Positions 1 through 59,350 of a stretch of 64,000 bases of DNA are shown piece by piece (position 1 is the first letter of the stretch; each line of letters begins with the position of its first letter). The stretch is from Candidatus Nomurabacteria bacterium RIFCSPLOWO2_12_FULL_40_42 (GTDB taxonomy: Bacteria; Patescibacteriota; Minisyncoccia; Phycocordibacterales; UBA9973). The position numbers were made by a program, and so were the translations under genes. The stretch spans positions 21,057 through 85,056 of the forward strand of contig MFVS01000008.1 of assembly GCA_001786195.1 (NCBI GenBank), read 5' to 3'. The notes beneath the pieces were generated by a model. It was not told where the DNA came from. It did not search any database and was given only the letters and a program-made list of their open reading frames with translations.

Positions 1-1281
1 TACCTCTTCTCCGCCACTTACACTCATCGGGTCGATTATGAGAGTTGCATTTCCGGTTTTCAGATCTATTTTCCAAAACTGGTCCGAAAATGATACTTCG
101 CCTTGATACCAAGAGTCGGGATATGCACCCGAGCTAATTGATTTAGGCACGGCGCAATAAATAGCATCGCTTGCTTTACCCCAAACGCATTTCTCTGGCA
201 GAGTTCGGAGTGAGAGAGTATCTGAATTTCGAGTGTCGGTATGATAAACCCGTAGCGATAGATTGCTATCGCTAAACAAAACCAATTTTCCGTTTGGACT
301 TCCCTTGGTGGTCAATCCATTGACGCCTCCCAATATTTTGGTTAAATTTTTGCCGGATCCGTCCATGCTGTACATATATCCGGGAGCGCTGGAGAAAGGT
401 TTGGTCGAAAGAGTAATCATATTATTATTTCCCCAAACAGACAGCCATTCAGTGAGGGGAGAATCAAACAGCTGCGTCTTTTTATTGTTTAATAAATTTA
501 AAGTTATTCCAATCATATTATCTCCCAAACTGCCACCACTGCTCCATAAATAAAATATTTTTGTGGTGTCGGGTGATATGCTTATATCTTGAATATTATC
601 CGGCAGAAAAACTCCTTTAACTTCGTTGTTTTCTGTGGTATCCCCTCCTAATAATTCTTTTGGTAGAGTGCCGACGAAAGTTTCGATTGTTTTTCCATTT
701 GCTTTCAAATATCGCATAATTACTGACTGTCCATGGTTGCCAAAATAAGCTTCATATACCTTGGGTATGACAGTCACCGAAAACTTTCGCTCTTCTATTT
801 TATCAGCGAAAGTTTGGTAAATGTTTCCAGTCTTCTTTTCTACATATCTTAAAGCAGGAGCAAATTCTGTTGGTGGTGGGGTGGGTTTGGTTCCCTTCCC
901 TTTGGGGAGGGTTAGGGTGGGGTTAGGAGTTACAGACCCCTCCCCACCTCCCCCAAGGGGAGGAGATATCGCTACTTCTTTTAGCCTTTCTTTACTAAAA
1001 ACTACAAATCCTGCCACGGGCATACTGGAAACTTTGGTTAGTTGCATTTTTACACCTGTCTCTACTGGGTTTGGCTGGTAATCCGACTCACCGGTCGCAG
1101 GCGTAGTAGCGCCTGGAACCGGCTTGCTGTCCCCAAATGGTTTAAATTGCGAAACAAAATTTGTGCCTGTCCCTGCATCTTCCGGAGCGATGGTTCCCGG
1201 GCGGAAATACCAAAAACCGAGAGCCGCGATTGCTCCTAGACCCAGAATTATTATTAAAAGTATAAAGTTTCTTTTGGACAT
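1..1281 (-). CDS. hypothetical membrane-anchored/exported protein, partial (continues beyond window start)
   Basis: Minus-strand frame open from ATG at 1279-1281 (MSKRNFILLIIILGLGAIAALGFWYF..., N-terminal hydrophobic anchor) to the window edge. It is absent from the ORF track because there is no stop in the window. Carries a GC-rich palindromic insert at 947-963 encoding PLGGGGEG. Confidence 0.5.
   Translation of the reverse strand, partial: MSKRNFILLIIILGLGAIAALGFWYFRPGTIAPEDAGTGTNFVSQFKPFGDSKPVPGATTPATGESDYQPNPVETGVKMQLTKVSSMPVAGFVVFSKERLKEVAISPPLGGGGEGSVTPNPTLTLPKGKGTKPTPPPTEFAPALRYVEKKTGNIYQTFADKIEERKFSVTVIPKVYEAYFGNHGQSVIMRYLKANGKTIETFVGTLPKELLGGDTTENNEVKGVFLPDNIQDISISPDTTKIFYLWSSGGSLGDNMIGITLNLLNNKKTQLFDSPLTEWLSVWGNNNMITLSTKPFSSAPGYMYSMDGSGKNLTKILGGVNGLTTKGSPNGKLVLFSDSNLSLRVYHTDTRNSDTLSLRTLPEKCVWGKASDAIYCAVPKSISSGAYPDSWYQGEVSFSDQFWKIDLKTGNATLIIDPMSVSGGEEV
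947..963. repeat. GC-rich C-tract/G-tract palindromic in-frame insert (family member)
   Basis: CCTCCCC-caa-GGGGAGG inside gene 1-1281, encoding PLGGGGEG. Confidence 0.5.
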
Positions 1282-6153: not shown

Positions 6154-6861
6154 CTAAGCTTCCGGCGGCAGACGATACGGATCGGCATTTTTGGGGTAAG
6201 ATTTTGGAGTCTCGGATACGGGTTCCTTTATTTCGCTTGAGGTCCTAGTAATATTTTCGATTGCATGCTCGGTTTTTACGACCGGGGTTTGCACCGTGCT
6301 GGATAATTTTTGGGTCAAGATAGGATGCGCCCTCTCTATCTCTAATTTTCCCGTCTGCATCAGCTGTGCTGAAGGCACTGCGGACAGGTCGTGAATAATT
6401 TCAATACCCGCTGACTTTAACACATGGGTATCTGTATGTATTTCTGTGTTCGCTCTCTCCTTTGAATCACCACCCCCTGCCCCCTCCTCCGAAAGGAGGG
6501 GAGGAGAACTTTTCACGAATATTTTTTTCCTCTCAGTGTTTTTAATTAATTCTTCCCTTATCTTTTTGAAGACCAGGTTATTCATTTCATTCACCAATTC
6601 ATTCGTGGCAGTCTCCGATATTTTTATCCTATTCATTAATTCCTTCGGATAGTTTTCCGCGCTTGTGAGCCCGCAAAGTAAAAGCTCCGTCTCGAGCTCG
6701 AGGTCGCCCAGTTGTTCGAAGGTGTATCCGTACTTACTTCGCAGTGACAAAATAGCCGTTTTCCAATCCACTACGGCAATAGCGTTCACTGTTTCGGTTG
6801 GTAAACTTGCTTTGGCTTCTTGTATTTTTATTTCTAATAAATCTACTGTGTCGTTGACCAT
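6154..6861 (-). CDS. hypothetical protein
   Basis: 235 aa ORF in the T4SS-like operon. Carries GC-rich insert 6481-6504 (EEGAGGGD). Confidence 0.4.
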   Translation of the reverse strand: MVNDTVDLLEIKIQEAKASLPTETVNAIAVVDWKTAILSLRSKYGYTFEQLGDLELETELLLCGLTSAENYPKELMNRIKISETATNELVNEMNNLVFKKIREELIKNTERKKIFVKSSPPLLSEEGAGGGDSKERANTEIHTDTHVLKSAGIEIIHDLSAVPSAQLMQTGKLEIERAHPILTQKLSSTVQTPVVKTEHAIENITRTSSEIKEPVSETPKSYPKNADPYRLPPEA

Positions 6862-6880: not shown

Positions 6881-7519
6881 TCATTGTATTATATCATTAA
6901 CTGGTTTTATATCGGCAGCCTTTAAAGTTTCCGCATTTTTATTTTGCATTTTAGTTTGGATGTCGGCTAGGGAGAGAGTGGTGGCGGGCGGCACAGAAAA
7001 TACCGGGATGATTGTTTTTTTATTTCCCTCTTGAGGGGTGGCCCTGAGATTTTCTGGGCCGGGGTGGATGTATTGTCCACCTCCTCCTAGCGGGTACTCC
7101 TCAAGAGGAGAATTTGGGGTCATGAATGCCGAATAATCTCCGCCGGAGAGAATGAAATTTACATTTTGCATGGCGGTTGGATTTTTAATTTTCAGATTTT
7201 TCTTGATATTGTCTTCCAAAATTTTTCTAATTGGCTTAAATATCCTCTCTAAAGCCTCATCGGCCATGCTTTTCGCTCCATCCTTGGTAGTGCCGACATG
7301 ATTTTCGATGTTAATAGCGTAAAATTCGAAGTCGGCAGCGCCAATCAAAATTATTAAAGTTTCTAGAATAAAATCGTCAATCTCTTCTTCCGTCAGATTA
7401 TATTTAGCTCCTATTTCTTCGGCGATTTTAACCCAAGGCACAGCCGAAATGGCTTCCTGCCCTTCTTTAGGCAATTGTGCGATTTCCTCTTCAATTGTTT
7501 GTTTTAATTTTTCGGTCAT
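6881..7519 (-). CDS. hypothetical protein
   Basis: 212 aa ORF in the T4SS-like operon. Carries an 82-bp inverted-repeat-flanked GC-rich insert 7027-7109 (EEYPLGGGGQYIHPGPENLRATPQEG). Confidence 0.4.
   Translation of the reverse strand: MTEKLKQTIEEEIAQLPKEGQEAISAVPWVKIAEEIGAKYNLTEEEIDDFILETLIILIGAADFEFYAINIENHVGTTKDGAKSMADEALERIFKPIRKILEDNIKKNLKIKNPTAMQNVNFILSGGDYSAFMTPNSPLEEYPLGGGGQYIHPGPENLRATPQEGNKKTIIPVFSVPPATTLSLADIQTKMQNKNAETLKAADIKPVNDIIQ
7027..7109. repeat. 82-bp GC-rich element with 10-bp perfect terminal inverted repeats, in-frame in a CDS
   Basis: CCTCTTGAGG...CCTCAAGAGG termini. The interior contains GTCCACCTCCTCC. Encodes ...EEYPLGGGGQYIHPGPENLRATPQEG. Confidence 0.55.
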
Positions 7520-7648
7520 CCCGTTAGAGATAGGAAATCTTTAGATTTCCGTTCCCTTAATTATTATTAATATCTTATTTAAGTTTAACATTATTTTTTA
7601 CTTCTATTTTAGTTTTTAACTATTTGATCTCTAACGGGAGTCATTGTA

Positions 7649-8212
7649 TTATTTTGGTCTAAATCCTATCTGGGTTTTTGGTTTTTCTTCTTTTGGTTTT
7701 TCTTTTTTCAGCAGTTGTTTTAATATCTCAAAAACCTCTTTCAGTTGATAATTATATTTTTTCTCCATCTTTTCTATTTTTATTCGGAGCTTCGTATTGG
7801 TTGCGAGCAATTCTCTTAATTTTGTAAAAGTTCTGATTATCTGAATGTTTACAAGTATTGCTCTTTTGCTGTTTAAAACGCTAGATAACATGGCGACACC
7901 TTGTTCGGTAAATGCGTAAGGCAACTTGCGTGTTCCGCCATGACTTGATATCACAAATTGTGACATCAAGTTTGATGTTCCAAATTGGAATATCAAGTTT
8001 TCAAATTCCTCTTTTGTTAGTTGAAACATAAAATCATTTGGAAAACGCTCCATATTTCTTTTTACTGCCTGAATTAATACTCTTGTTTCAACTTGATAAA
8101 GATGTGCTAAATCTTTATCCAGCATTACTTTTTTACCGCGAATAAAAAGTATACCATTTAGGATTCTTTCACTCGGTATTAAACTTTTTGTTTGTTTTAA
8201 TTTTTTGGGCAT
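7649..8212 (-). CDS. ORF6N-domain protein
   Basis: ILFIRGKKVMLDKDLAHLYQVETRVLIQAVKRNMERFPNDFMFQLTKEEFENL...RKLPYAFTEQGVAMLSSVLNSKRA matches the ORF6N (KilA-N-like) domain common in mobile elements. Confidence 0.75.
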   Translation of the reverse strand: MPKKLKQTKSLIPSERILNGILFIRGKKVMLDKDLAHLYQVETRVLIQAVKRNMERFPNDFMFQLTKEEFENLIFQFGTSNLMSQFVISSHGGTRKLPYAFTEQGVAMLSSVLNSKRAILVNIQIIRTFTKLRELLATNTKLRIKIEKMEKKYNYQLKEVFEILKQLLKKEKPKEEKPKTQIGFRPK

Positions 8213-10849: not shown

Positions 10850-11227
10850 TCATTTTCTAGCGGAACTTGCGATTTTTTGAAAAATAAGCGTTAACTCCTG
10901 GCACTCCTTCCATTGTTTTAGTAAGCCAAATTGCAGATCGGTATCACAAGTAGTCAACATTCTTAGCCAGTGCTTTGTTTCCTGCGTCTCTTTTTTGCAT
11001 ATAAATATTTTATTGATGAAATCTTTTTTAGAACTTGCGCCGTTTGCTTCCATATAGTTGGCTCCTATACTTGTGCCAGATCGAATTAGTTGAGAAATAA
11101 GAGGTCTGGTTATGGTATCTTGCTTTAACTTCTTGCACAATAATATCAAATTTTCACCAAATTTTGCAGTTCTTTCTTCTAAGTCGTAAACGCGAGAATT
11201 TGCAATTTTTGAATTTTCAGTTTTCAT
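10850..11227 (-). CDS. four-helix-bundle protein (TIGR02436 / 23S rRNA-intervening-sequence protein family; Avd homolog)
   Basis: 125 aa with the hallmark SIGANYMEANGASSKKDFINKIFICKKETQETKHWL motif. Confidence 0.8.
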   Translation of the reverse strand: MKTENSKIANSRVYDLEERTAKFGENLILLCKKLKQDTITRPLISQLIRSGTSIGANYMEANGASSKKDFINKIFICKKETQETKHWLRMLTTCDTDLQFGLLKQWKECQELTLIFQKIASSARK

Positions 11228-15660: not shown

Positions 15661-16611
15661 TTGTGTATAATTCCCTTCATGAGGTCATTTTTCTTATTTA
15701 TTTTTATTATTTTATTATTTTATCCACAGACTCCTATAAAAGTTTTAGCGGCGGGAACTTATTCAGACTGCAATATCACTACTGTATTAAGGATGGGTTC
15801 TAAAGGGGCTGAAGTTCGATGTCTTCAGGGAAAAGTTGGGGTAGCTACCGACGGCAGTTTTGGTCCTTTGACCAATGCTGCAGTTAAGGTTTTCCAAACA
15901 AATAATAGATTAACGCCTGATGGAATAGTCGGCCCTATTTCTAGGCTGATACTTAATAGTTTTTTGGCAAATAATGGTATTTATCCGTCGGTTATCAATC
16001 ATCAAGGGTTGAAACCCATGCCTATGCCGAAAATTACAAATAACTCAACAAATGCTAGTCTTAATCCTGTGGATTTAGATCATTTTATATCTACCGTTGT
16101 AGAAGTAAATAGAAAAAATGGAAAGAGTGAACAAGAATTGGCGGTTATAGCAAATATTCTCCGAAAAACAATTACTGAGAGCAAGATTGATTACAATAAA
16201 GAATTTGAAAAGTTGCTTGTAAATGAAAGTCAACAATTAGGCATTAAATCAAATAACACTCCTCCACACCCTAGCATTTTTGATCGCATGATTAAAAAAC
16301 CCCTTTCCTTTTTAGATATTACTTCTTCTGTAGCTCAAGCTGCAACTGGGGCAGGTATAGGGTTCGGTGGCAAATTACTAGCCGCTACTCCTTGTGCCGG
16401 AAGTTGGATGTTGGAAATAACTCCTCTGCCTCCGACGAACGTAGTGCTTTTGAGTTATATTCCGGGCACTCAGGGTTTTGCAAGCTACAATATACCCTTT
16501 ACCACTAATCTACTTGGATTATATGTACCAGGTGGTAACTGTTCTTATGGTCCTGTTAATATAACAACCCAAGGCACTATTCTCCCAATGGTCGGTTCGT
16601 CTCCTCTCTAG
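15661..16611 (+). CDS. peptidoglycan-binding-domain protein
   Basis: Signal peptide. PG_binding_1-like segment GSKGAEVRCLQGKVGVATDGSFGPLTNAAVKVFQTNNRLTPDGIVGP. Confidence 0.6.
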   Translation: MCIIPFMRSFFLFIFIILLFYPQTPIKVLAAGTYSDCNITTVLRMGSKGAEVRCLQGKVGVATDGSFGPLTNAAVKVFQTNNRLTPDGIVGPISRLILNSFLANNGIYPSVINHQGLKPMPMPKITNNSTNASLNPVDLDHFISTVVEVNRKNGKSEQELAVIANILRKTITESKIDYNKEFEKLLVNESQQLGIKSNNTPPHPSIFDRMIKKPLSFLDITSSVAQAATGAGIGFGGKLLAATPCAGSWMLEITPLPPTNVVLLSYIPGTQGFASYNIPFTTNLLGLYVPGGNCSYGPVNITTQGTILPMVGSSPL

Positions 16612-17419
16612 AAGCCAAGACAATCCAGTCTTCCAGTGTTAAATCCTCCGCTCTTTTGTCTTGAAGTTGCTTTCTTTCGAGTTTTTCTGCCGAAATAACA
16701 TTTTTTAAGTTGCCAGAGAGCTTTTTTCGCTTATGGGCGAAGCCGGTTTTTACTATTTGCCAAAATTTAGTCTCGTCTATTTTATTATCTTCGAAAACTT
16801 TGCGGGAAATATTTTTTATGGCTATTATGGCCGAATTTACCTTGGGTACTGGCGAGAAATATCTTTTGTCCACCTTGGCGATCATTTTCGGCTCCCCGTA
16901 TGCTTTGACAGAAATGGAGAGGATGCTTTCTTTGCCGTTTTTGGCCAAAATTCTTGTCGCGACTTCGCGCTGAACCATGAGCACCATACCCTTTGGTTGG
17001 TTTTTTCCCGTTAAGAATTTTTTAAGTATCGCGCCGGTTATGTTGTAAGGAATATTCGCAATTACTTTGTAATTGCGTAATTCGTAATTCGTAATTTCAA
17101 ATTCCAATATGTCACCATGAACTAAATTTAGTTGTCCCGATGAAATTTCTTTTTCAAATTTTATTTTTAAAAATTCATAAAGTTCCCTGTCTTTCTCTAT
17201 CGCTAGAACCTCGCACCTAGTCTCTAGCAACTTATTTGTGAGCGCTCCCCTGCCCGGACCTATCTCTAAAATTATCTCGCCAGGTTTTATCTCCTCCGCT
17301 TCAATAATTTGCCAGAGAGCCTCTTCCGATTTTAAAAAATTTTGCCCTAAAGCCTTTTTGGCTCGGGCGAAAACATATTTGTTTTGTAGCCCCAAATGTT
17401 TTTTAGCTCTGTGTAACAT
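16577..17419 (-). CDS. rsmA: 16S rRNA (adenine1518/1519-N6)-dimethyltransferase
   Basis: LGQNFLKSEEALWQIIEAEEIKPGEIILEIGPGRGALT and ANIPYNIT motifs of KsgA/RsmA. Confidence 0.9.
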   Translation of the reverse strand: MLHRAKKHLGLQNKYVFARAKKALGQNFLKSEEALWQIIEAEEIKPGEIILEIGPGRGALTNKLLETRCEVLAIEKDRELYEFLKIKFEKEISSGQLNLVHGDILEFEITNYELRNYKVIANIPYNITGAILKKFLTGKNQPKGMVLMVQREVATRILAKNGKESILSISVKAYGEPKMIAKVDKRYFSPVPKVNSAIIAIKNISRKVFEDNKIDETKFWQIVKTGFAHKRKKLSGNLKNVISAEKLERKQLQDKRAEDLTLEDWIVLASREETNRPLGE

Positions 17420-17426
17420 AATATAT

Positions 17427-19481
17427 TTATATATAAATTGTTTTTATTATGTCTGTTTTACCTTCCTTTTCCAATAAATCTGCCGGAATATCAGAAATGA
17501 ATTCGGACGGAGCGTTGATCTGCCGGGATCCGAAAATTGTGCGAAAATTTGCGAACGACAAAAATAATTTCTCTTTGGCCCGAGTCACAGCCACATAAAA
17601 AAGCCGGCGCTCTTCCTCGCTATCCATATCTATTGTTTCACTGCTTTTCTCATGCGGGAAAAGTCTGTCTTCTAGACCTGTGATAAAAACATACTTAAAC
17701 TCAAGCCCTTTTGAGGCGTGCATGGTCATTAGCTTAACTGCATTCATTTCTTTTTTTCTTTCATTTGTAATCATCAAACTATCTTGATCAGAGGCGAGCG
17801 ATGCATCTTCTAGCAGCTTTTCAGTGCCCTGGCTACCCTCGAGACTGTCATACTTGAGCGCCAATGTGGCCAGCTCTTTTATGTTTTCCAATCTTTCGAT
17901 GCCTTCTTCGCCGTCACTGCCGAGTTCTGCTTCAATCCCGGATTTTTTTACCACGAATTTTATCACTTCGCTGATTTTGGAATTAGAGATTTTTTCTTTT
18001 ATGGCTTCCAGTGTTTTGTAAAAATTATTAATCTTAATTTTCATTTTTATCGGTAAGTTTTCCATATCATTGGCAAAAATTTTAAGCAAAGTAACTTTGC
18101 CGATGTCTCGCGCTGGAAAATTAATTATTCGTTTTATATCCGACAGACTTTGAGGGTTTAAAGCGGCGCGCAGATAGGCCAATGTGTCTTTTATTTCTTT
18201 TCTTTCAAAAAATTTTACACCCAAAACCTGGTATGGAATATTATACCGAAGCATAGCTTCTTCCAGCGCCCGGGATTGAAAGTTGGCGCGATAGAGAATA
18301 GCGATACCGGAAAAAATGCTTTCGGACTCACCACGAAAATTTTCTGCTGAAAATTTTCTCTGTCCGTCGCCGTTCAGAAAATGTGCTCCCAGCACATTTC
18401 TGCTTCCAAGGGTTCGCTCGAAAACATTTTTTCCAGTATCGCAGATCTCCAAAATTTTTGTGGCCACAAAATCAGCCTCATCATTTTCATCCAGCGCTTC
18501 ATATAGGCCGATTTTTTCACCCGTTACATTTTTTGTAAATAGGTTTTTATCCGGCCGATATTTATTTTTTTTGATTACTACATTCGCCGCCTCCAGAATA
18601 TTTTTGGTGGATCGATAATTTTCCTCCAGGAGTATCACTTTCGCTTCCGGATAATCTTTTTTAAAACTCAAAATGTTCTTTAAATTTGCCCCGCGCCAAG
18701 AGTATATATTTTGGTCCGCATCTCCGACCACGCAAATATTCTTATTATTCTCAACGAGCATTTTCGACATCAAATACTGCACCTCATTGGTGTCCTGATA
18801 TTCATCGATGTGGATATATTCCCATCTTTCTTGATAAATTTTCCGAATTTCTTCGTTTTCTTTTAGTAACTTTGTCGATTTGAGTAGCAGATCGTCAAAA
18901 TCCAGCGAATTTTCTTTCAATTTTTTCTTTTCATACAAATTCCAAACTTGCGTCACTATCTCGCCGTACACCCCCTTTTCTCGTTCAGAATAATCTGCTA
19001 AATGCACGAATTTTCCTTTTTCTCGCGAGATAATATTTTTTATTTTCTTTGGATCATATTGCTTTGGGTCTATGCCGAGTTCTTTTTGGATCTCTTTGAT
19101 GAGGGTTGTCGCGTCACGTTCGTCGAGAATCGTGAAATACTTCGTCAGCCCCAAAAGTCTTGCATTCTCTTTTATAATACAAACTCCGAGCGAATGAAAA
19201 GTACTGACAAATGGAATGCTATTTTGACCCGAAATAATTTCTTTGACATTTTTTTCTATTTCATAAATTATTCTTTCGCGCATTTCCTTGGCCGCTTTAT
19301 TAGTAAAGGTAACGGCTAAAATGCGCTCCGGAGCGACTCCTTGCTTTATCAGATTCACTATTCGATGCGTTATCGTCTTGGTTTTCCCCGCGCCTGCTCC
19401 GGCAACGATCAAAAGTGGACCATGCACATGAACCGCGGCTTCTTTTTGCGCTGTATTTAGCTCTTTGAGATGATTTTCCAT
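17427..19481 (-). CDS. pcrA: ATP-dependent DNA helicase PcrA/UvrD
   Basis: LNTAQKEAAVHVHGPLLIVAGAGAGKTKTITHRIV (motif I), TFH, DEYQDTN and the remaining SF1 motifs. Contains a palindromic in-frame segment at 18375-18402. Confidence 0.9.
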   Translation of the reverse strand: MENHLKELNTAQKEAAVHVHGPLLIVAGAGAGKTKTITHRIVNLIKQGVAPERILAVTFTNKAAKEMRERIIYEIEKNVKEIISGQNSIPFVSTFHSLGVCIIKENARLLGLTKYFTILDERDATTLIKEIQKELGIDPKQYDPKKIKNIISREKGKFVHLADYSEREKGVYGEIVTQVWNLYEKKKLKENSLDFDDLLLKSTKLLKENEEIRKIYQERWEYIHIDEYQDTNEVQYLMSKMLVENNKNICVVGDADQNIYSWRGANLKNILSFKKDYPEAKVILLEENYRSTKNILEAANVVIKKNKYRPDKNLFTKNVTGEKIGLYEALDENDEADFVATKILEICDTGKNVFERTLGSRNVLGAHFLNGDGQRKFSAENFRGESESIFSGIAILYRANFQSRALEEAMLRYNIPYQVLGVKFFERKEIKDTLAYLRAALNPQSLSDIKRIINFPARDIGKVTLLKIFANDMENLPIKMKIKINNFYKTLEAIKEKISNSKISEVIKFVVKKSGIEAELGSDGEEGIERLENIKELATLALKYDSLEGSQGTEKLLEDASLASDQDSLMITNERKKEMNAVKLMTMHASKGLEFKYVFITGLEDRLFPHEKSSETIDMDSEEERRLFYVAVTRAKEKLFLSFANFRTIFGSRQINAPSEFISDIPADLLEKEGKTDIIKTIYI

Positions 19482-28002: not shown

Positions 28003-28653
28003 TTATTTAGGTTTCTGAAAAAGCGATTCCAATAAGCCTAATTCCACTGGTTTTTTTATGAATTCAATTTCTTGCGAAATTAATGTTAATTTTTTATCAA
28101 AAATCTGCGCCATTTCTTTGTCCTCAAAAAAATGATAGTGAATACCGTGTTTTTCTAGTTCGCCATCCGGTGAAGCTATCGGGGAGAAATTTATAAAATT
28201 TATTGTTTTGCGCGAGAAGGACATATTCAAATAAAATCCTCCGGGCTTTAGCACTCGTCTAATTTCGTCAGCATATTTCGGCCAGTCTTTCTTGTGCAGA
28301 CTCTCCATCAGCCCAAAAGCGCAGACGCCATCGAAGCTGTTGTCCACAAAAGGTAACTTCAAAGCGTCGGCGGTGACAAATTTCAATTTACCCTCCAGCC
28401 CCCAATGTTTTATTTCTCCGTTGACCTTGGACACGATCTGGTCTTCAAAATCAATGCCGATCACCTTGAAGCCCATGTCGGCTAATTGTTTGGCAAAAAG
28501 GCCGCGGCCGCTCCCGACATCCAAGATCGAAGCCCCGGCTGGAAGTTTTTTTATGAGTTTGGTTCCCCGGAGCGGTATGGTTAAAGGCGTCCAGATATCG
28601 GTGCCAGTTGCATAAGCTTTATTAAAATGATCTTTGTGTGCGTGATAATCCAT
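28003..28653 (-). CDS. class I SAM-dependent methyltransferase
   Basis: ILDVGSGRGLFAKQLADMGFKVIGIDFE (motif I). Start taken at in-frame ATG 28651-28653 (MDYHAHKDHF), which sits inside the conserved 15-mer shared with the PrgI gene start. Confidence 0.7.
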   Translation of the reverse strand: MDYHAHKDHFNKAYATGTDIWTPLTIPLRGTKLIKKLPAGASILDVGSGRGLFAKQLADMGFKVIGIDFEDQIVSKVNGEIKHWGLEGKLKFVTADALKLPFVDNSFDGVCAFGLMESLHKKDWPKYADEIRRVLKPGGFYLNMSFSRKTINFINFSPIASPDGELEKHGIHYHFFEDKEMAQIFDKKLTLISQEIEFIKKPVELGLLESLFQKPK

Positions 28654-28848
28654 CCCGTACGAAATTTCATTAAATTGATAAATTGACCCATCCCTTATAC
28701 GAAACTTTTTTAGCAAGATTTCGTACGGGATCCATGGGTGAATTATAACACTGCTTTGTTTTTTAGACTATACGGGAACCAAAGTTTATATCAACCGCTC
28801 ACATTGGAAACCAATCCATCAAGGAGCGGTTTTCATTTTGTGTTATGA

Positions 28849-45801: not shown

Positions 45802-46335
45802 ATGAAAGATAAAATTGTAGTTTATACGGACGGAGCAGCTAAGAGAAATCCTGGGAACGCTGGCTGGGGAGCTGTTTTCATAATTCACCCCTACCCGGCC
45901 TCCCCCTTGATAAGGGGGAGGAGTCAGGAGGGGGTCTTCGAAATTGGCGGGGGAGTAGAACACGCTACCAATAATATTATGGAACTAACTGCGCCGATAG
46001 AGGCATTGAAATATTTAAAGACACTTTTCCCTAGTGAAGTCCCTAGGGATATCACTAGGGAAAGAAATATAGAAATTATTTCTGATTCTAAATATGTGAT
46101 TTTGGGAATCACTGAGTGGATTTTTAATTGGCAAAAAAATAATTGGCGCAATGCCAACAAAAAACCTGTTTTGAATCGCGAGCTTTGGGAGGAGCTATAC
46201 AAACTGACCGAAGAGTTAAAGCCAAAATGGACGTATGTAAAAGGACATAATGAAAATAAATACAATGACCGCGCTGACTTGATTGCCACAAGTTTTGCAG
46301 AGGGCGCTCAAGTGGAACTTAAAAGTAAAAAATAA
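45802..46335 (+). CDS. rnhA: ribonuclease HI
   Basis: VVYTDGAAKRNPGNAGWGAV...TNNIMELTAPIEAL...ISDSKYV...KGHNENKYNDRADLIA. GC-rich palindromic insert at 45899-45921. Confidence 0.85.
   Translation: MKDKIVVYTDGAAKRNPGNAGWGAVFIIHPYPASPLIRGRSQEGVFEIGGGVEHATNNIMELTAPIEALKYLKTLFPSEVPRDITRERNIEIISDSKYVILGITEWIFNWQKNNWRNANKKPVLNRELWEELYKLTEELKPKWTYVKGHNENKYNDRADLIATSFAEGAQVELKSKK
45899..45921. repeat. GC-rich palindromic in-frame insert in rnhA
   Basis: CCTCCCCCTT-gat-AAGGGGGAGG, a perfect 10+3+10 palindrome inside an extended imperfect palindrome 45887-45940. Encodes ...SPLIRGRSQEGVFEIGGGVE. Confidence 0.6.
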
Positions 46336-57607: not shown

Positions 57608-59350
57608 ATGACCCAAGATCAGGCTTTAAATATTTTAAAAACCGGTGCCAATGTTTTTCTAACTGGCGAGCCGGGGGCGGGGAAGACGCATACCATAAAT
57701 AATTTTGTAAATTATCTGCGCGACTGCGATATTGAGCCGGCGATCACAGCTTCGACCGGTATCGCAGCGACGCATATCGGCGGAATGACGATTCATTCTT
57801 GGAGCGGCATTGGCATTCGGACCAAACTCGACAAATATGACTTGGATAAAATCGCGAGCAGTGAATATATTGTAAAGCGGGTCAATCGAACCAAGGTTTT
57901 GATTATTGATGAGATTTCCATGCTCTCGACGAATATGCTCGAGATGGTGGATCTGGTTTGCCGGGAAATCAGACAGAGCAGCGAGCCCTTTGGTGGTATT
58001 CAAATTATTCTGGTTGGCGATTTTTTCCAGCTGCCACCGATTACTAAAAGAGACGAAAGTGTTAAACAAAATTCACTGATTGCGGAAGTCGGATTTCCGC
58101 GTTTTGCTTACCATTTCGGAGCTTGGGAGCGCTCGCGGCTCGTAGTGTGCTATTTGAGCGAACAACACCGCCAGGATGATGCGGATTTTCTTTCCGTGCT
58201 TTCGGGCATCCGGGCGAACAATGTTTCGGAAATGCATCGGAATCATCTCCAGACTCGGCATATTCGCACGGATAAGCTTCCAGAAAACATTCAGAATATT
58301 ACCAAACTTTTTTCGCACAATGTGGATGTGGATCGGGTCAACAACGAAGAGCTAGCCAAATTGAATACCGAAAGGAAATTATTCCGAATGTCCGGGAGTG
58401 GAAATGAAAAAGTAGTCGAGACTCTCAAGAAGGGCTGCTTGTCGCCGGAGAATTTGGAACTCAAAATCGGCGCGGTGGTGATGTGCACCAAGAATAATCC
58501 GAAAGAGAGGTTTGTAAATGGCACTCTCGGCATTGTGGTTGGTTACGAAGAATTTAGCGGCTATCCGATTATCAAAACTCGAAATGGACGGAGCATCAAG
58601 GTGGCGCCGATGGATTGGAGCGTGGAAGAAAACGGCAAAATTCGGGCGCAGATTACCCAGGTGCCGCTCCGGCTGGCCTGGGCGATCACCGTGCACAAGA
58701 GCCAGGGGATGAGCATGGACGCCGCGGTGATGGATTTGTCGCAAGTGTTTGAGTTTGGGCAGGGGTATGTGGCGCTCTCGCGGGTGCGCCGGCTCTCGGG
58801 CCTGTATCTTCTCGGCATAAATGCTCACGCGCTCAAAGTGCATCCGGAAATTTTGCAAAAAGATATCGATTTTAAAAATAAATCAGATGAAGCGGTAAAA
58901 GTTTTCGGTAAAATTTTGGAAGCGGATTTAAAAAAGATGCATGAAAGTTTTGTGGTGACTTGCGGAGGAAAGATCAAAACTAAATCCGGAGGAAAACACC
59001 ACTTGGAGGCAAGGCCTCCAAGTGGTGTAAATATAAAAAAAGAAAGAAGATGGGAACAAACTCTATCCTTCATACAAGATGGTAAAAGTATTTTAGAAGT
59101 AGCACATTTGCGTGGTAGAAAAGAAGAAACAATTATAGAACATCTAGAAGAATTAAAAAAGATTGGAAAGTTGACGGAAGAAACGAAGAATATTTTAAAG
59201 TTAAAAATTACCAAAGAGCAAGAAGATCAAATAAACAAAGTTCGTTTATCTATGCTTTTGCTGGGTGCGGAGCTACTTAAACCAATATATGATCACTTTG
59301 GTGGGAAAATTTCATATGAGAATATTCGTTTGGCTCGACTTTTGTCCTAA
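57608..59350 (+). CDS. Pif1/RecD-like SF1 DNA helicase
   Basis: VFLTGEPGAGKTHTI Walker A, LIIDEISML Walker B, ITVHKSQGM motif. C-terminal helical extension. Confidence 0.7.
   Translation: MTQDQALNILKTGANVFLTGEPGAGKTHTINNFVNYLRDCDIEPAITASTGIAATHIGGMTIHSWSGIGIRTKLDKYDLDKIASSEYIVKRVNRTKVLIIDEISMLSTNMLEMVDLVCREIRQSSEPFGGIQIILVGDFFQLPPITKRDESVKQNSLIAEVGFPRFAYHFGAWERSRLVVCYLSEQHRQDDADFLSVLSGIRANNVSEMHRNHLQTRHIRTDKLPENIQNITKLFSHNVDVDRVNNEELAKLNTERKLFRMSGSGNEKVVETLKKGCLSPENLELKIGAVVMCTKNNPKERFVNGTLGIVVGYEEFSGYPIIKTRNGRSIKVAPMDWSVEENGKIRAQITQVPLRLAWAITVHKSQGMSMDAAVMDLSQVFEFGQGYVALSRVRRLSGLYLLGINAHALKVHPEILQKDIDFKNKSDEAVKVFGKILEADLKKMHESFVVTCGGKIKTKSGGKHHLEARPPSGVNIKKERRWEQTLSFIQDGKSILEVAHLRGRKEETIIEHLEELKKIGKLTEETKNILKLKITKEQEDQINKVRLSMLLLGAELLKPIYDHFGGKISYENIRLARLLS

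Follow-up and report, generated by a model that had tools for sequence, protein, structure and literature searches.

The 92-nt segment at 7022-7113 of the window, the window being the whole 64-kb stretch of DNA that was analysed, is probably a member, somewhat decayed, of a family of GC-rich palindromic repeats, non-coding and ~80-100 nt long, that is spread through Paceibacteria-type CPR genomes, and this copy would be translated in a linker of the protein that carries it. The family is new. Its kind, an in-frame palindromic dispersed repeat, is known. No description of the element was found in the literature, which was searched with peptide and DNA strings as well, and the repeat family is apparently undescribed so far.

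The window copy and its host gene

A sequence-only reading of the window had proposed an 82-bp MITE-like element with perfect 10-bp terminal inverted repeats at 7027-7109, sitting in frame in a T4SS-cluster gene and adding 27 codons without a stop. Both 10-mers are present and perfect, with CCTCTTGAGG at 7027-7036 and its reverse complement CCTCAAGAGG at 7099-7108 of the + strand. The span between their outer ends is indeed 82 bp, but it stops at 7108, one base earlier than proposed. The 10-bp repeat is the inner part of a larger element on the minus strand. Because the profile and model matches cover 7022-7113, the true unit is 92 nt rather than 82 bp, or 31 codons together with the preceding A. 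Read with t7114, these codons are residues N136-N166 of the ORF 6881..7519 (NSPLEEYPLGGGGQYIHPGPENLRATPQEGN), a peptide that begins NSPLEEYPLGGGG and ends TPQEGN. The ORF contains no stop, as had been stated, but the figure of 27 codons is not exact since 82 is not divisible by 3. The sense strand of the element was defined as the coding strand of the host gene. The GC content of the flagged segment is 0.53-0.57 compared with 0.40 for the window, which agrees with its description as GC-rich.

By itself the 10-bp inverted repeat is unremarkable, because the window contains 28 perfect inverted 10-mer pairs with a spacer of 20-100 bp where ~12 are expected. The segment is raised above chance by its fold and by its match to the family. 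The window copy folds with -44.5 kcal/mol, and z = -5.3 relative to shuffles whether it is folded as RNA or as DNA. An nhmmer profile built from 82 copies identified 7022..7113 with E = 4.7e-21 (70.8 bits), the sole significant match in the 64-kb window. R1, a covariance model built from 16 other copies, matched the segment over model positions 1-87 of 87 with 77.4 bits (E = 7e-19), a score in the lower third of the at least 98 sense matches (61-111 bits). One P2 pair and one P1 pair are lost, and the P4 stem is private, its sequence being found in no other copy. The segment belongs to the family, and by its sequence it appears to be an ordinary, slightly to somewhat decayed member.

The claim of an in-frame position in a T4SS-cluster gene stood, as the host is a minus-strand ORF near PrgI and a VirB4-type ATPase. 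The cluster is conserved, and its gene order is large membrane protein, host gene, paralog, PrgI, TraC-like gene and VirB4-type ATPase. The cluster contains a VirB4-type TraG P-loop ATPase and PrgI, while the TraC-like gene was assigned by synteny. The host protein matched no Pfam family and no fold in the PDB. AlphaFold predicted a confident helical domain for residues 1-132 of the window protein and pLDDT < 50 for residues 136-184. The insert lies wholly within this low-confidence stretch and is therefore predicted to occupy a disordered linker, where the element would be read as 31 extra linker residues after the folded N-terminal domain.

Small accessory genes between the genes of the T4SS-like cluster differ by genome. 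In the window the cluster slots 7649-8212 and 10850-11227 are taken by an ORF6N-domain gene and a 23S-rRNA-IVP/bAvd-like gene. A PemK toxin occupies a cluster slot in L003 (3027-3416) and an IVP gene occupies one in L002 (11248-11616), while in L001 no gene is called in the slot that separates the large membrane protein from the ortholog of the host gene. Small mobile genes seem to use the T4SS-like cluster as a landing pad.

Table 1. Features of the long element, its hosts and the short elements. Positions refer to the window.
Feature	Position	Strand	Sequence or description
Full copy of the dispersed GC-rich repeat	7022..7113	-	sense ATTCTCCTCTTGAGGAGTACCC...CCCCTCAAGAGGGAAAT
Peptide stretch predicted for the element			SPLEEYPLGGGG
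Host ORF	6881..7519	-	212 aa; conserved gene of the T4SS-like cluster; element = residues 136-166
P1 5' arm, terminal inverted repeat	7099..7113	-	sense ATTCTCCTCTTGAGG; includes the right-hand 10-mer of the earlier reading
P1 3' arm	7022..7036	-	sense CCTCAAGAGGGAAAT, family consensus CCTCAAGAGGGGAAT; includes the left-hand 10-mer
P2 remnant	7085..7094	-	sense CCCGCTAGGA
P3 hairpin	7061..7084	-	sense GGAGGTGGA-CAATACA-TCCACCCC; + strand holds the CCACCTCCTCC core
P4 variable hairpin	7040..7060	-	sense GGCCC-AGAAAATCTCA-GGGCC
Empty site in the window's KsgA (ORF ~16577..17443)	16760..16816	-	...KNISRKVF-EDNKIDET-KFWQIVK...
Short hairpin element in paralog ORF 6154..6861	6465..6510	-	CCCCTCCT-TTCGG-AGGAGGGG + GCAGGGGGTGGTGA; in frame as SPPLLSEEGAGGGD
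Two adjacent short hairpin elements	890-965	-	in frame as ...ISPPLGGGGEGSVTPNPTLTLPKGKG...; ORF of at least 429 aa, runs off the window start
Short GC-rich hairpin element in ORF 45802..46335	45886-45925	+	CCTCCCCCTT-loop-AAGGGGGAGG + G-rich tail; in frame as ...FIIHPYPASPLIRGRSQEGVFEIGGG...
Host KsgA/RsmA			at least 9 genomes, same site
Host PheT			5 genomes among the loci listed
Host UvrB			3 genomes among the loci listed
Hosts PurD, Tgt and IF-2			2 genomes each among the loci listed
Hosts in the T4SS-like cluster			gene of the 6881..7519 family and its paralog

Paired architecture and dispersal of the family

The family is modelled as a four-helix junction, in which a 15-bp terminal stem (P1) closes three hairpins (P2, P3 and P4). 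The sense consensus is ATTCTCCTCTTGAGG-AGTA-CCC(loop or extended stem)GGG-GGAGGTGGA(loop)TCCACCCC-G(variable hairpin)C-CAC-CCTCAAGAGGGGAAT. Elements are 78-131 nt in length with a mode of 83-86 nt, and they have no ORF of their own. P3 is conserved, while P2 and P4 vary in sequence and length yet remain paired.

The structure is conserved across copies. In a model-guided alignment of 98 copies, standard pairs filled 98.0% of the pair cells compared with 51-66% when the partners were slid. P1, measured on 96 distinct copies, and P3 (helix 3) were each 98.7% paired. The columns of the P1 5' arm are invariant or nearly so in 82 copies, and pair 4/214 of P1 is C-G in 93/96 copies. Changes on both sides of a pair were counted in 74 cells versus 15.3 in shuffles, and the observed value was reached in 0/500 of these. 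All four P4 pairs (helix 5) and two P2 pairs showed compensatory changes. Because the 98-copy alignment is fitted to the model, a second, model-free parse by anchor sequences was added. It yielded 21 P2 variants and 49 P4 variants, most of which are still predicted hairpins, with mean energies well under those of shuffles. The consensus of P2 is CCC-loop-GGG; a G>A change leaves 2 bp in the window copy, the only P2 variant that loses a pair. In the P1 3' arm of the window copy one G>A change creates a C.A mismatch, and the U.G pair that is usual for the family is also present.

The mean RNA fold of the antisense strand is -47.1 kcal/mol and that of the sense strand is -44.9 kcal/mol. As both strands fold about equally, the structure is best described as a palindrome that identifies no RNA strand. 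Deriving the strand of action from G.U wobbles was tried and rejected, the antisense RNA folding slightly better on average. The core includes a perfect Shine-Dalgarno-like GGAGGTG, which is sequestered in P3.

In the first comparison, three host-gene orthologs with 54-74% amino-acid identity were retrieved via their proteins and compared as DNA. The segment was almost identical in nucleotides in all three, with inner hairpins that differ but stay complementary. A scan of one genome per species with the 17-mer CCTCTTGAGGAGTACCC generated at least 119 loci, and ~105 of these contain the whole element among the matches listed. At E <= 1e-13, R1 gave at least 98 sense matches among the loci listed. 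The family is thus dispersed in multiple copies: more than 100 are scattered in Patescibacteria (Paceibacteria-type, CPR) MAGs, several of which have copies on at least 5-7 different contigs per assembly. These many copies in other genomes bear out the earlier proposal that the segment is a small dispersed repeat bounded by terminal inverted repeats, though the rest of this 64-kb window has none. Copies in one genome resemble each other slightly more than they resemble copies of other genomes (p = 7e-4), and two L002 copies have their loop and P4 sequences in common.

Matches in Planctomycetes, Chloroflexi, Clostridia, Prevotella and others were discarded as bare chance 17-mers without the element. 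Genuine elements were found on contigs of MAGs labelled Simkania (L005 and L035), Burkholderiales (L104) and Limisphaerales (L038). Mis-binning of CPR DNA, and not horizontal transfer, may account for these contigs. Mis-binning is suspected because the two Simkania contigs have a common 3.9-kb stretch with 100% identity, and L104 contains the same in-gene PheT insertion as CPR MAGs.

Rfam 15 gave no match overlapping the element at E <= 10 for the window copy or a consensus-like copy, and none at the gathering score on the element in 10 whole loci. By ARAGORN the element is neither tRNA- nor tmRNA-like. A 20-mer had 0 matches in the IMG/VR viral contigs, and blastn found no match among INPHARED phages or PLSDB plasmids.

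Among the loci listed, 38/92 full copies (~40%) are inside long ORFs in sense orientation, essentially all of them in the frame AAT TCT CCT. The frame is open through the element in all 38, and the encoded peptide is rich in Pro, Gly, Glu and Ser (NSPLEEYPxGGGG...TPQEGN). At most six copies overlap an antisense ORF, and this despite two antisense frames that are in many cases free of stops. The intergenic copies face either way with respect to neighbouring genes; their flanks are AT-rich, and a stop codon is often directly adjacent.

Many in-gene copies are found at a matching codon position when orthologs from different genomes are compared, as in KsgA, PheT and UvrB. Where the encoded amino acid is conserved, third-position identity is 0.83-0.97 in the element core versus 0.45-0.70 in the flanks. 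Since the way in which loci were found biases the identity of the 5' core, third positions were measured again on the 3' core and on protein-sampled loci; identity was also high in the 3' core and in four copies sampled via protein alone. A vertically inherited, passively decaying insertion should not show such third-position identity. Taken together, synonymous-site identity and shared codon sites suggest that elements arrived recently or repeatedly at preferred sites, that gene conversion acts between copies, or that the nucleic acid itself is under selection.

The element is present at some orthologous sites and absent from others. Empty sites were sought by joining the flanks of filled sites and comparing them with the DNA of the window and of the loci. 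The window's own KsgA has no element at a linker that is filled in the KsgA of at least nine other Paceibacteria genomes. Further empty sites are the L081 ortholog of the host gene and two intergenic sites. Among 116 orthologs of the host gene, ~33 contain the element, whole or as a remnant (a 5' part, a 3' part or an internally deleted form), ~8 contain short hairpin elements instead, and 77 lack the element by motif search. Orthologs without the segment, a comparison that the sequence-only reading had put forward, thus exist, and P0004, P0008, P0021 and the L081 ortholog are examples. Truncated and internally deleted copies of the element also exist. Relative to the window the arrangement in L040 is swapped, with a short element in the ortholog (PPLLSEEGAGGGDS) and a long element in the paralog, so the linker appears to have been hit repeatedly, by repeated insertion into a permissive site.

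The flanks read T-W-A / element / A-A-W, and direct matches of 2-3 bp occur at ~1.6-2x the expected frequency. No clear target-site duplication was found in the flank profile or in the filled/empty pairs, which are only 67-79% identical and too diverged for placement of the junctions. Neither a long-interior copy nor a transposase flanked by the same ends was found among the ~105 element-bearing loci, of which 8-20 kb each were examined. The search for split or long-interior copies identified only truncated copies and nested short elements. One candidate, a 5'-to-3' distance of 1078 bp in L056, turned out to be two separate copies.

Comparison with known elements and competing explanations

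MITEs are ~50-800 bp in length and have terminal inverted repeats of ~15-30 bp, a target-site duplication and a related autonomous partner. The family has the size, the lack of an own ORF, the terminal repeats, the dispersed copies and the presence/absence polymorphism. Bacterial MITEs (Correia, ERIC/RU, MITEAba12) resemble it in size, 15-bp terminal inverted repeats, absence of own coding capacity, multi-copy dispersal, polymorphic sites and AT-rich insertion contexts, and occasional in-gene MITE copies add peptides (PMC2759123, PMC10969869). On the other hand, ~40% of the sampled element copies are in genes, whereas a census placed ~90% of MITEs in intergenic DNA (PMC11602168). In addition, no parent insertion sequence with matching ends was found in ~105 loci and no target duplication was demonstrated. 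Since neither a transposase partner nor a clear target duplication was found, the 'MITE' label is better read as an analogy than as membership.

In behaviour the closest analogues are the Rickettsia palindromic elements (RPEs). These too are small palindromic dispersed repeats of a reduced, AT-rich genome, with a preferred reading frame and with both in-gene and intergenic copies. Many RPEs are in frame in ORFs that are presumably still functional (PMC3733652), and the 38 sense in-ORF copies show the same type of insertion in one reading frame. The present element differs in its host, Patescibacteria, and is likened to RPEs by behaviour, no sequence kinship being apparent. It is also shorter (~80-100 nt) and GC-rich, and its fold is a four-helix junction in which the variable hairpins are modular. 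The core hardly changes among many species, and several host genes have the element at one and the same codon position in different genomes.

REP/REPIN sequences, which are associated with RAYT tyrosine transposases, are similar in their GC-rich hairpins, in stems kept by compensatory change and in having no obvious target duplication. Some REPs are inside genes, notably replication and repair genes (PMC3733652). The element is a compound four-helix unit and not a single hairpin of 20-40 bp as in REPs, and its consensus has no terminal GTAG; GTAG/CGTC is found only inside some P2 and P4 variants. Yeast mitochondria contain mobile GC clusters and 'byp' elements, GC-rich palindromes that invade AT-rich genomes, coding regions included, and byp elements are skipped by the ribosome. 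The element resembles them as a GC-rich palindrome within an AT-rich genome that enters coding regions as well. The yeast elements are organellar and unrelated in sequence, and while byp is skipped, the element keeps its frame open, which points to translation.

In the explanation that we favor, copies of a dispersed palindromic repeat would reach AT-rich sites between and inside genes. Mobility would be at the DNA level and depend, in a MITE- or REP-like manner, on an enzyme that acts in trans and recognises the repeat by its fold or its ends, and recombination between copies may help to homogenise them. The in-gene survivors would be those open-frame copies that give a Pro/Gly/Glu/Ser-rich coil in a tolerant loop or linker. 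Such survival would explain the one orientation and one frame in genes, a bias that would then come from selection on the peptide. The many in-gene copies at the same codon position across genomes argue against transposition at random.

That recurrence of sites is shared evidence for a different view, in which the element is a functional structured nucleic acid, mRNA or DNA, kept by selection and not merely selfish DNA. It might resemble an uptake or recombination signal, spread when the conserved genes around it undergo homologous recombination, or it might serve in linkers to pause translation or to confer stability. A core invariant at synonymous sites, helices that vary yet keep pairing, the same site filled in KsgA, PheT and UvrB across genomes and the Shine-Dalgarno-like motif sequestered in P3 are all in its favor. 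We regard it as rather unlikely, given that most orthologous sites can be empty, that copies decay or are truncated, and that intergenic copies have no fixed position or orientation relative to genes. Moreover, neither strand is a distinctly better RNA fold and the antisense is even slightly more stable, no Rfam family matches, and one copy in this 64-kb window is far fewer than is usual for uptake signals. A related and bolder proposal is that the element is a four-helix nucleic-acid signal actively maintained or homogenised across CPR genomes, and thus more than tolerated junk. The reasons for it are the invariant synonymous core, the covarying helices and the shared codon site in KsgA, PheT and UvrB. 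CPR bacteria are thought to depend on DNA uptake. The signal could be a sequence spread by recombination or DNA uptake through allele replacement in conserved genes, or a structure recognised by a structure-specific enzyme. This proposal is unlikely.

The compact, very stable fold could also be that of an intervening sequence (a small intron, a ribozyme or a ribosomal bypass) that is removed after transcription and leaves the 31 codons absent from the protein, and GC-rich mobile elements of yeast mitochondria can be bypassed. We consider this very improbable, as the frame is open in 38/38 in-gene copies and nearly always the same, which would be needless if the sequence were removed; no Rfam ribozyme or intron matches, and ARAGORN found nothing tRNA-like. 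More improbable still is an ancestral conserved peptide motif of the host protein family, with the inverted repeat incidental. The motif SPLEEYPxGGGG...TPQEGN is indeed at the same position in many orthologs, but the same nucleotides also encode parts of unrelated proteins and recur between genes in either orientation, third codon positions are invariant, 77/116 orthologs are without the element by motif search, and disorder is predicted for the region. This reading is contradicted by the copies that lie in intergenic DNA or in unrelated genes. As to a chance inverted repeat in a low-complexity GC-rich linker, 10-base inverted repeats of such spacing are common in the window; profile and covariance matches with E ~1e-19 to 1e-21 over the full 87-88 positions refute it, and its probability is next to nil.

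The interest of the family stems from its breadth, the recurrent sites in essential genes and the unexplained nucleotide-level conservation, which raises the question of the factor by which the element is recognised or homogenised. Genomes of CPR bacteria (Patescibacteria) are very small, and most of their content lacks annotation. The same 28-35 residues are written into essential proteins, with KsgA, PheT, UvrB, IF-2, PurD, Tgt and T4SS-cluster proteins being affected, which will mislead homology searches, domain boundaries and gene calls and can seed spurious 'conserved motifs'. R1, or simply the 17-mer CCTCTTGAGGAGTACCC, is a tool for masking or tracking the elements. The family is a second, independent case of the Rickettsia RPE phenomenon in another reduced-genome lineage, and it allows the creation of new protein segments by selfish palindromes to be studied by comparison.

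Short hairpin elements and other repeats

The window also contains short hairpin inserts (Table 1), which had been suggested to be deletion derivatives of the long element and to have its core in common. The exact 11-mer core CCACCTCCTCC is present only in the long element, while versions with one mismatch occur at 944, 6480 and 38977. Derivation by deletion was rejected: the short inserts give E >= 4 with the long-element profile, a full-length form of their own is conserved in other genomes, and they are nested as intact, discrete units in the P3 loop of long elements in L068 (7536-7666), L030, L033, L093 and L098. Judging by sequence, the short inserts form separate hairpin families. They consist of a C-rich/G-rich stem and a GGAGGTGG-like or GGGGTGAGGTG-like tail, and only this design is common with the long element. 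One short subfamily, CTCCTCCT-loop-AGGAGGAG-TGCCCGAAGGGC-GAGGTGGT, mirrors the 5' half of the long element, a likeness that may reflect a related design or common machinery of the short and long families.

The 42-nt element within 6465-6510 recurs as an identical 42-mer in L040, at the site where the window gene has the long element. The protein with the two elements at 890-965 is large and of secreted or membrane type, and the ORF 45802..46335 looks like an RNase HI gene. Some intergenic regions in L013, L018 and L029 are 'nests' of different GC-rich hairpin elements in a row.

A second MITE-like element, unrelated to the first, is found at 7520-7638, in the spacer directly upstream of the start codon of the host gene. 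It is 119 bp in length with perfect 12-bp terminal inverted repeats (CCCGTTAGAGAT/ATCTCTAACGGG), an AT-rich interior and a conserved sub-terminal hairpin, GGAAATC-TTTA-GATTTCC, and its RNA fold has z = -5.5. Its ends, spanning ~117 nt, were also found in L010 (near the 5' end of the pheT reading frame), L020 and L063. On the gene strand 4/4 copies have ATG(A) on both sides, a pattern suggestive of a direct repeat or of insertion at start codons. Finally, perfect 15-bp stem hairpins with 3-4 nt loops at 2500-2533 and 58996-59028, and a 14-bp inverted repeat with a spacer of ~55 nt at 28652-28731, may be terminators or further repeats.
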